This document shows positions 3,759-4,874 of a DNA stretch of 64,000 nucleotides, one piece after another; the first letter of the stretch is position 1; each line of letters opens with the position of its first letter. Both the position numbers and the translations under genes were made by a program. This stretch comes from a phage, in assembly GCA_014435945.1 (NCBI GenBank), contig GCA_014435945.1_4088.1; one strand, 5' to 3'. Below the pieces are notes generated by a model. It did no database searches. It was not told where the DNA came from and worked only from the letters and a program-made list of their open reading frames with translations.

Positions 3759-4874
3759 ATGAAAAAGTATTTGGTTGGTGGCTACGTTCGTGACCGTTTA
3801 ATGGGCATCCGTGCAAAAGACAAAGATTATGTTATTGTTGGTGCTACCGAATCCGATATTAAGTACTTGCAAAGTATTGGATACAAGCAAGTAGGTAAGG
3901 ATTTCCCTGTATATCTAAGTCCAGAAGGTAATGAACACGCATTAGCCCGTACTGAGCGTAAAACTGGTACTGGATATGGTGGCTTCGAAGTGAATACAAA
4001 AGGTGTGACACTAGAACAAGATCTATATCGTCGTGATCTCACAATCAATAGTATTGCATATGATCCAGTACTCCAGATTCACATCGACCCTTATGGCGGG
4101 AAAGCTGATATCAAGAACAAAGTACTTCGTCATGTATCAGAACACTTTAAAGAAGATCCATTGCGTGTTCTACGTTTGGCCCGTTTCGCTACGCGTTACT
4201 CCGACTTTACAATCCATGATGATACTATGACAATGTGTAAAGATATGGTTAGTACTGGTGAACTAGACCATCTAGTCCCAGAACGTGTATTTGTTGAATT
4301 CGAAAAAGCACTTTCTGAAGAAAACCCTTCCAAGTTTATCAAAACTCTGGTACAATTTGGTTATTACGAAAAGGCATTTACTACAGTTCCAGTTACCAAG
4401 AAACGTCTGGAATTAATTGATGCTATCGCTGCAAATTGTACAGAAGAATATAAACCATATTTCTTATGGACAGTACTTCTTGAAAATGAAGAAGTAAATA
4501 ATGATTCAGTACTTAACGGTTCCATTAAGGTTCCAGTTAAGTACGTGAAGTTTAGTAATTACATCAAGCGTTTCCGTGAAGATATTAAAACCTTCCGTAA
4601 GAAGACCCCAGTTGAAATGGGGCAAATCTTACTGGATATGAATATCAAAAACAATGGTGGTGAAGATTTCCTTTACAAAGTACTGGAAAACTTCATTTTG
4701 AACAAAGAAATTGATTCTGAACTTGAAGATTTGATTATTAAAGTTTATGATCGTTATACTGATGTTGAATTACCTGATATTCAGCAGTTAGTGAAAGATG
4801 GTGAACTCCAAACATCGGAGATTCGTGATTTTGTTGCTGAATTGCGTATTGAAGCAATCAAGCAAATGTTCTAA
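3759..4874 (+). CDS. cca: CCA-adding tRNA nucleotidyltransferase
   Basis: 371 aa; N-terminus LVGGYVRDRLMG ... DKDYVIVGAT ... ARTERK ... RRDLTINSIAYD ... DPLRVLRLARFA matches the class II CCA/poly(A) polymerase head domain. Confidence 0.8.
   Translation: MKKYLVGGYVRDRLMGIRAKDKDYVIVGATESDIKYLQSIGYKQVGKDFPVYLSPEGNEHALARTERKTGTGYGGFEVNTKGVTLEQDLYRRDLTINSIAYDPVLQIHIDPYGGKADIKNKVLRHVSEHFKEDPLRVLRLARFATRYSDFTIHDDTMTMCKDMVSTGELDHLVPERVFVEFEKALSEENPSKFIKTLVQFGYYEKAFTTVPVTKKRLELIDAIAANCTEEYKPYFLWTVLLENEEVNNDSVLNGSIKVPVKYVKFSNYIKRFREDIKTFRKKTPVEMGQILLDMNIKNNGGEDFLYKVLENFILNKEIDSELEDLIIKVYDRYTDVELPDIQQLVKDGELQTSEIRDFVAELRIEAIKQMF

Follow-up and report, generated by a model that had tools for sequence, protein, structure and literature searches.

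The cca gene at positions 3759 to 4874 of a 64,000-nucleotide stretch of phage DNA (NCBI GenBank assembly GCA_014435945.1, contig GCA_014435945.1_4088.1; the whole stretch is referred to as the window in the following) encodes a protein that is supported by its family matches, motifs and predicted fold as a CCA-adding enzyme, i.e. a class II tRNA nucleotidyltransferase. Judged by nucleotide identity, the window belongs to an Asteriusvirus jumbo coliphage of the 121Q/PBECO4 group, for which both the gene with its annotation and the role proposed for it have already been published. The present analysis adds two points. CCA is missing from about half of the tRNA genes of these coliphages, whereas the host encodes it in all of its own, which provides a concrete substrate set for the phage enzyme (Cca). 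In addition, the HD phosphohydrolase ligands are lost, which confines any repair role to tRNAs with 3'-OH ends. The phage's own tRNAs are probably the most direct clients of the enzyme.

Family assignment and catalytic motifs

The open reading frame (ORF) and its product of 371 amino acids (aa), for which the first-pass annotation had claimed a class II nucleotidyltransferase head, were borne out by the ORF call and by a Pfam match of the head to PolyA_pol (PF01743; aa 4-124, E 5.5e-19), to which a match of the neck to PolyA_pol_RNAbd (PF12627; aa 149-207, E 3.1e-10) can be added. PHROG 2244 'tRNA nucleotidyltransferase' matches the product over its full length (E 1.9e-117), and the NCBIfam ranking is led by four CCA-adding equivalogs (283, 243, 223 and 215 bits). 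The best of these models, PRK10885 'multifunctional CCA addition/repair protein', stays with its 283 bits below the cut-off of 451 and spans just 204 of the 409 model positions; every NCBIfam CCA match is limited to aa 1 to about 204 and falls below the full-length cut-off. BLASTP against HD-type bacterial Cca revealed 59% identity over aa 1-205, including the loop between motifs A and B, and no alignment past residue 205.

The motifs listed below were located by regular expressions on the cca translation, and their conservation was assessed in an alignment of 39 homologues, which are 37-86% identical to the window Cca.

3759..4874, plus strand: cca, ORF with the ATG at 3759 and a stop codon ending at 4874, 371 aa; putative class II tRNA nucleotidyltransferase without a functional HD domain
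3777..3827, plus strand: motif A, GGYVRD (aa 7-12) and the catalytic carboxylates DKD (aa 21-23); G7, G8, R11, D12 and D23 invariant, D21 at least 90% conserved
4029..4049, plus strand: motif B, RRDLTIN (aa 91-97), ribose recognition; R91, R92, D93, T95 and N97 invariant
4086..4109, plus strand: motif C, DPYGGKAD (aa 110-117); D110, P111, G114 and D117 invariant
4152..4187, plus strand: motif D, EDPLRVLRLARF (aa 132-143), with the EDxxR amino-acid template for CTP/ATP selection; E132, D133, P134, R136, R139 and R142 invariant
4281..4298, plus strand: motif E, ERVFVE (aa 175-180), in the neck; R176 and E180 invariant

As read from the translation, all five class II motifs, A to E, are intact in the window Cca, and the last invariant column of the alignment is F193. 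Enzymes that proceed from C to A addition require a flexible loop between motifs A and B, and CC-adding enzymes carry a deletion of it. In the window protein the loop sequence HALARTERKTGTGYGGFEV aligns gap-free to HALARTERKTAAGYKGFKV of HD-type Cca, its intactness being judged by similarity only, and the loop residues A63, R64, E66, R67, K68, G72, Y73 and F76 are invariant. The specificity expected for such a protein would be the template-independent addition of exactly C-C-A.

Body and tail region and loss of the HD ligands

The remainder of the protein corresponds to the following feature:

4374..4871, plus strand: all-helical body and tail (aa 206-371), presumed to bind tRNA and collinear with the HD domain of E. 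coli-type Cca

No Pfam family, and specifically not the HD family PF01966, was matched by the last 166 aa of the phage Cca. The structure that AlphaFold2 predicted on the basis of the family alignment is confident (mean predicted local distance difference test score 93, predicted template modelling score 0.86) and consists of helices only beyond residue 128. It can be superposed on solved CCA-adding enzymes, and its helical body and tail complete the head-neck-body-tail layout, giving a predicted class II fold over the full length. Together with the NCBIfam ranking, the identity of the N-terminal part and motifs A to E, this fold supports the CCA-adding identity that had been assigned to the protein in the first-pass annotation.

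In a profile-profile alignment, the phage family and HD-type Cca are collinear to the C-terminal end, and the invariant HD-type ligands H231, H255-D256 and H270/H273/E274 face gaps in the phage family. In addition, the window Cca contains no histidine in aa 205-371 or, in fact, anywhere after residue 171. The HD phosphohydrolase ligands have thus been lost from the phage Cca, which does not possess an HD domain of the PRK10885 type. Since the ligands are deleted and no histidine follows residue 171, the phosphohydrolase activities to which E. coli Cca owes the name 'multifunctional' (2',3'-cyclic phosphodiesterase, nucleotidase and phosphatase) should not be available to the phage enzyme, and because of this loss it could rebuild 3'-OH ends only. 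The GenBank labels of the Asteriusvirus orthologues vary between 'tRNA nucleotidyltransferase', 'CCA-adding enzyme', 'multifunctional CCA protein', 'phosphatase' and 'hypothetical'; given the absence of the HD ligands, 'multifunctional CCA protein' and 'phosphatase' are wrong, i.e. over-annotations that overstate the function.

tRNA genes in the window and in related phages

The first-pass annotation had stated that the window contains no tRNA gene, which is correct, as ARAGORN found 0 tRNA or transfer-messenger RNA genes in the 64 kb and Rfam gave 0 matches at gathering scores; however, this describes the window and not the genome. Positions 3000-7000 of the window are 98.3% identical to the Escherichia phages vB_Ec-M-J and WPEC3, 97.1% to BF17 and 85-87% to 121Q and PBECO4, and vB_Ec-M-J, WPEC3, 121Q and PBECO4 belong to the genus Asteriusvirus with jumbo genomes of 348-386 kb. 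The window ends map to positions 118,456 and 182,482 of vB_Ec-M-J (378,573 bp), so that the window covers about one sixth of a genome.

All of the relatives considered for this purpose carry tRNA genes, four to seven each. The five tRNA genes of vB_Ec-M-J (Ser-UGA, Ser-GCU, Met-CAU, Asn-GUU and Thr-UGU) are located at 291,423-294,842, which is 170 kb from cca and 109 kb beyond the right end of the window. In TH47 (352 kb, 96.5% identical over the cca region), the whole genome of which was scanned, four tRNA genes form one cluster at about 160-165 kb, and the stretch matching window positions 3000-7000, i.e. the cca region, is found at 331-336 kb. Six tRNA genes were detected in WPEC3 and six in 121Q by ARAGORN (seven are annotated in the latter), while 6 tRNAs have been reported for fEgEco12 (PMC13070987) and 7 for Sharanji (PMC11895373). 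The tRNA-cluster region matches 51 phage records. Because the tRNA cluster of the relatives maps outside the window, the absence of tRNA genes is a sampling artefact of the window placement, and a tRNA cluster is to be expected in the window's own phage, judged from these homologous genomes. The full-genome tRNA scan that the first-pass annotation had proposed, run on the relative TH47, did find tRNAs, and the suggestion in that annotation that the enzyme may act on host tRNAs because the window has none is not supported.

Encoded CCA ends of the phage tRNA genes

For each of the 21 tRNA genes of TH47, vB_Ec-M-J, WPEC3 and 121Q, the acceptor stem was located and the bases past the discriminator were read. 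CCA is not encoded in 10 of the 21 genes; these ten are not independent and represent about six distinct genes or alleles distributed over the four genomes:

Thr-UGU: without CCA in all four genomes
Asn-GUU: without CCA in TH47 and vB_Ec-M-J
Ser-ACU: without CCA in WPEC3 and 121Q
Arg-UCU: without CCA in TH47
Gly-UCC: without CCA in 121Q

The acceptor stem is fully paired (7/7) in all ten CCA-less genes. Nine of them have a trailer consisting of C followed by an A-rich stretch (CAAAAA, CAAAAC, CAAAAT or CAAATT), and the trailer of the TH47 Arg-UCU gene, AAAATA, encodes none of the three CCA bases. The Rfam tRNA model confirms 19 of the 21 genes, including nine of the CCA-less ones, which score 50-71 bits compared to a gathering score of 29 and in which the model ends at the assigned discriminators. 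It follows that CCA, or at least CA, must be added to the CCA-less phage tRNAs after transcription. In E. coli, CCA is encoded by all tRNA genes and the host cca is needed for repair only (PMC6468291). Since the genes of the phages partly do not encode CCA, the phage imports a kind of tRNA that is not made by its host. The combination of a genome that encodes tRNAs and of tRNA genes without genomic CCA was found in the close relatives only.

Phages that are otherwise 96-98% identical differ strongly in their tRNA cluster, in which HNH endonuclease genes are interspersed (WPEC3, vB_Ec-M-J, 121Q and TH47). Among the four clusters compared, Arg-UCU occurs in TH47 only and Ser-ACU in WPEC3 and 121Q only; moreover, Asn-GUU is represented by two non-homologous genes, of which only one encodes CCA, and Thr-UGU by two alleles. 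The TH47 cluster contains a group I catalytic intron (Rfam RF00028, 100.5 bits; L005 12819-13132, minus strand, about 162.2-162.5 kb of the record) between tRNA-Ser(GCU) and tRNA-Asn(GUU), which Rfam did not detect in the corresponding cluster regions of WPEC3, vB_Ec-M-J or 121Q. The tRNA-Ser with the unusual anticodon ACU (A34), which does not encode CCA, is located at L010 6633-6724 in WPEC3 and at L013 5192-5283 in 121Q (Rfam 49.9 bits). A phage-encoded tRNA-specific adenosine deaminase has been reported in Asteriusvirus (Sharanji, PMC11895373) and might act on this tRNA-Ser(ACU).

Proposed role of the phage enzyme

Since about half of the tRNA genes of the relatives do not encode CCA, the Asteriusvirus Cca would serve more directly to mature the phage's own tRNAs than to act on host tRNAs. 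The head and neck (aa 1-205) would provide the complete catalytic and nucleotide-selecting machinery of enterobacterial Cca, and the helical body and tail are presumed to hold the acceptor/T-arm of the tRNA. RNase P cleavage and 3' trimming of the phage pre-tRNAs would leave a 3'-OH at the discriminator; in E. coli, 3' trimming is performed by RNase BN/Z and exonucleases, as is the case for the CCA-less tRNAs of T4. The phage Cca would then add C74, C75 and A76, untemplated and with motif D serving as a protein template, to 3'-OH tRNAs ending at or after the discriminator, so that the completed phage tRNAs could be aminoacylated. The same activity would also restore the CCA ends of host or phage tRNAs that exonucleases have shortened in the course of infection and that end in a 3'-OH. 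In this scheme, we infer the catalytic specificity and the in vivo substrates of the phage Cca, while its gene, motifs, fold and HD-ligand loss and the CCA-less tRNA genes of the close relatives are observed. Maturation of the phage's own tRNAs was already proposed in 2013 for gp031 of phage RaK2 (PMC3622015), and CCA-adding enzymes have been listed among the common RNA-end-restoring enzymes of jumbo phages (PMC7824862).

This assignment is weakened by the fact that the host Cca does the same job for T4 (Deutscher, Foulds and McClain 1974, as cited in PMC6468291). The host enzyme could equally mature the tRNAs of the Asteriusvirus phages, which leaves the advantage of a phage copy unexplained; its benefit might lie in capacity, in independence from the host or in repair. 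With the discovery of a defence that cuts tRNA tails, the question why a phage should duplicate a host activity has become more topical; the window itself contains nothing that bears on it.

A different role, which we regard as unlikely although it is the strongest competitor, is that the enzyme mainly serves counter-defence and repair, replacing the 3' CCA that host nucleases have removed from host (and phage) tRNAs rather than maturing phage tRNAs. In line with this, Iyer et al. (PMC7824862) count the CCA-adding enzyme as one of the RNA-repair nucleotidyltransferases found in jumbo phages, and Pnk and RNA ligase are present in the sister genus RaK2 (PMC3622015). Moreover, Cas12a3 defence cuts the 3' CCA tails of tRNAs, with the viral counter-measure being unknown according to the authors (PMC12851939), and Fri1-like small phages, which are annotated with a tRNA nucleotidyltransferase, have zero tRNA genes (PMC5537680). 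Also, if the host Cca can already mature phage tRNAs, a second copy may meet a need for capacity or repair. However, the premise that the phage has no tRNAs is false for the Asteriusvirus group, and with every HD metal ligand lost and no histidine in the C-terminal part, the enzyme should not process 2',3'-cyclic-phosphate or 3'-phosphate ends. Furthermore, Cas12a3 often removes the discriminator as well (PMC12851939), a base which a CCA-adding enzyme does not restore. The gene neighbourhood does not argue for repair either: no defence or anti-defence context was seen around cca, where the neighbours encode HPF-like, NUDIX, glutaredoxin, macro-domain and hypothetical proteins, and neither an RNA ligase nor Pnkp was found among 20 scanned window ORFs of at least 180 aa, which are structural or nucleotide-metabolism genes (not every smaller ORF outside the immediate neighbourhood was covered). 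Repair of host tRNAs by the phage Cca is possible, but nothing in this analysis supports it.

Even less probable in our view is a more specific form of this idea, in which the HD-less Cca is kept despite the host enzyme as a counter-defence that rapidly rebuilds 3'-OH tRNA ends after the CCA tail has been trimmed by immune or stress nucleases, such as Cas12a3-like effectors or induced exonucleases like RNase T. If true, the enzyme would answer a mode of attack on the universal CCA tail that is not evadable through variant tRNAs.

That the protein is a poly(A) polymerase (PAP) or another RNA-tailing enzyme, which might for example tag host RNAs for decay, is very improbable. Over the same residues that match the CCA models with 215-283 bits, the two models of E. 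coli PAP I (PcnB; structure 3AQL) score only 92 and 51 bits and thereby miss their thresholds by far (TIGR01942, 91.6 bits, cut-off 305.65; NF008634, 51 bits, cut-off 702), and the difference between 283 and 92 bits favours a CCA-adding enzyme. HD-type Cca shares 59% identity with the head and neck, in which motif D and the flexible loop are located, and the PAP-specific termini, i.e. the N-terminal extension and the basic C-terminal tail, are absent; the protein starts with MKKYLVGG exactly like Cca. It is equally hard to credit that the enzyme is only CC-adding or A-adding and cooperates with the host Cca, since the A-B loop carries no deletion and is conserved with full CCA-adding enzymes of the enterobacterial type, all top-ranking family models are equivalogs with full CCA addition and none of the CCA bases is encoded in the Arg-UCU gene of TH47.

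Relation to known enzymes

Within Asteriusvirus, the same gene with the same neighbours is found in Ecwhy_1, vB_Ec-M-J (EcMJ_271), WPEC3, fEgEco12, 121Q (gene 539), PBECO4 and Sharanji (WNN14700.1). The Cca protein of Ecwhy_1 is 99.5% identical to that of the window, and the 4 kb of DNA surrounding the window gene are 98.3% identical to vB_Ec-M-J, in which the gene is annotated as tRNA nucleotidyltransferase. The Asteriusvirus genes do not differ in anything of substance from the window gene. The wider family comprises about 80 full-length clusters of 367-376 aa on contigs of 330-360 kb (RaK2-like, GAP32, Eneladusvirus, PHA46 and XaC1). Klebsiella phage vB_KleM-RaK2 gp031 and its orthologues in GAP32, Erwinia/Yersinia Eneladusvirus, PHA46 and XaC1 align over the full length with 55-67% identity, but belong to other genera and hosts than the window phage; their C-terminal half diverges faster, with a median identity of 43% compared to 66% in the N-terminal half.

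The Cca of E. coli and Salmonella (PRK10885) shares all motifs, the N-terminus and a collinear layout with the phage Cca, the head and neck being 54-59% identical. However, it is about 410 aa long and contains an active HD domain with the invariant residues H231, H255-D256, H270, H273, E274, H305, H309 and D345, whereas the phage Cca has deletions at HD ligand positions and no Pfam HD match. The solved class II enzymes of B. stearothermophilus (1MIV), T. maritima (3H37/5HC9) and human mitochondria (4X4W) are just 21-25% identical to the phage Cca, which is slightly shorter. Two further candidates for comparison were set aside: a paper on Mom and tRNA-dependent DNA modification is irrelevant, because the CCA-adding enzyme was only a laboratory tool there, and Gp22 of fHe-Kpn01, a distant nucleotidyltransferase-like toxic protein, is uninformative for the phage Cca family.

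Gene start and neighbourhood

The features next to cca, in the order of their position, are:

1600-2232, plus strand: HNH endonuclease, 210 aa (phrog_953, E 3.6e-68), between the lysozyme-like and HPF-like genes
2245-2577, plus strand: ribosome hibernation/modulation factor-like (HPF-like) protein, 110 aa (Pfam Ribosomal_S30AE, E 2.3e-8, above cut-off)
2801-3214 and 3201-3623, plus strand: pair of neighbouring ORFs upstream of cca, about 140 aa each, without family matches
3748..3754, plus strand: Shine-Dalgarno-like GGGGGAA, 4 nt before the cca ATG, read directly from the sequence
4981-5394, plus strand: NUDIX hydrolase, directly 3' of cca
5384-5632, plus strand: glutaredoxin, downstream of cca; two small uncharacterized ORFs lie between this gene and the macro-domain gene
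6214-6690, plus strand: macro-domain protein, a weak match (Pfam Macro 20.4 bits, just under the 22-bit cut-off)

An ORF of 40 aa precedes cca with its stop codon at 3755-3757, 1 nt ahead of the cca ATG, and this close adjacency suggests translational coupling of the two. A promoter and terminator scan gave 33 promoter-like sites compared to 28.6 ± 6.4 in the shuffled expectation; as this is no excess, nothing is inferred about the timing of cca expression.

The order of two hypothetical genes upstream of cca and of the NUDIX, glutaredoxin and macro-domain genes downstream is common to the relatives, some of which label the macro-domain protein 'phosphatase' or 'Appr-1-p processing'. The two ORFs of about 140 aa have a common C-terminal motif (...Y.QY.FIDDTF..D...) and look like tandem paralogues. 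The HPF-like gene, located about 1.2 kb upstream of cca, is called 'sigma 54 modulation protein' or 'ribosome-associated inhibitor A' in the relatives. At the site of the HNH gene, vB_Ec-M-J, TH47, Ecwhy_1, BF17 and WPEC3 lack this gene (matches in two pieces, 72-74% coverage), while it is present in vB_EcoM_JNE01 (100% coverage); from this distribution, it is probably a mobile homing-endonuclease insertion. Taken as a whole, the window has a mosaic make-up with respect to the sequenced Asteriusvirus genomes, with positions 61000-64000 being 100% identical to BF17 and positions 1-2600 being nearest to JNE01 (97.0%).
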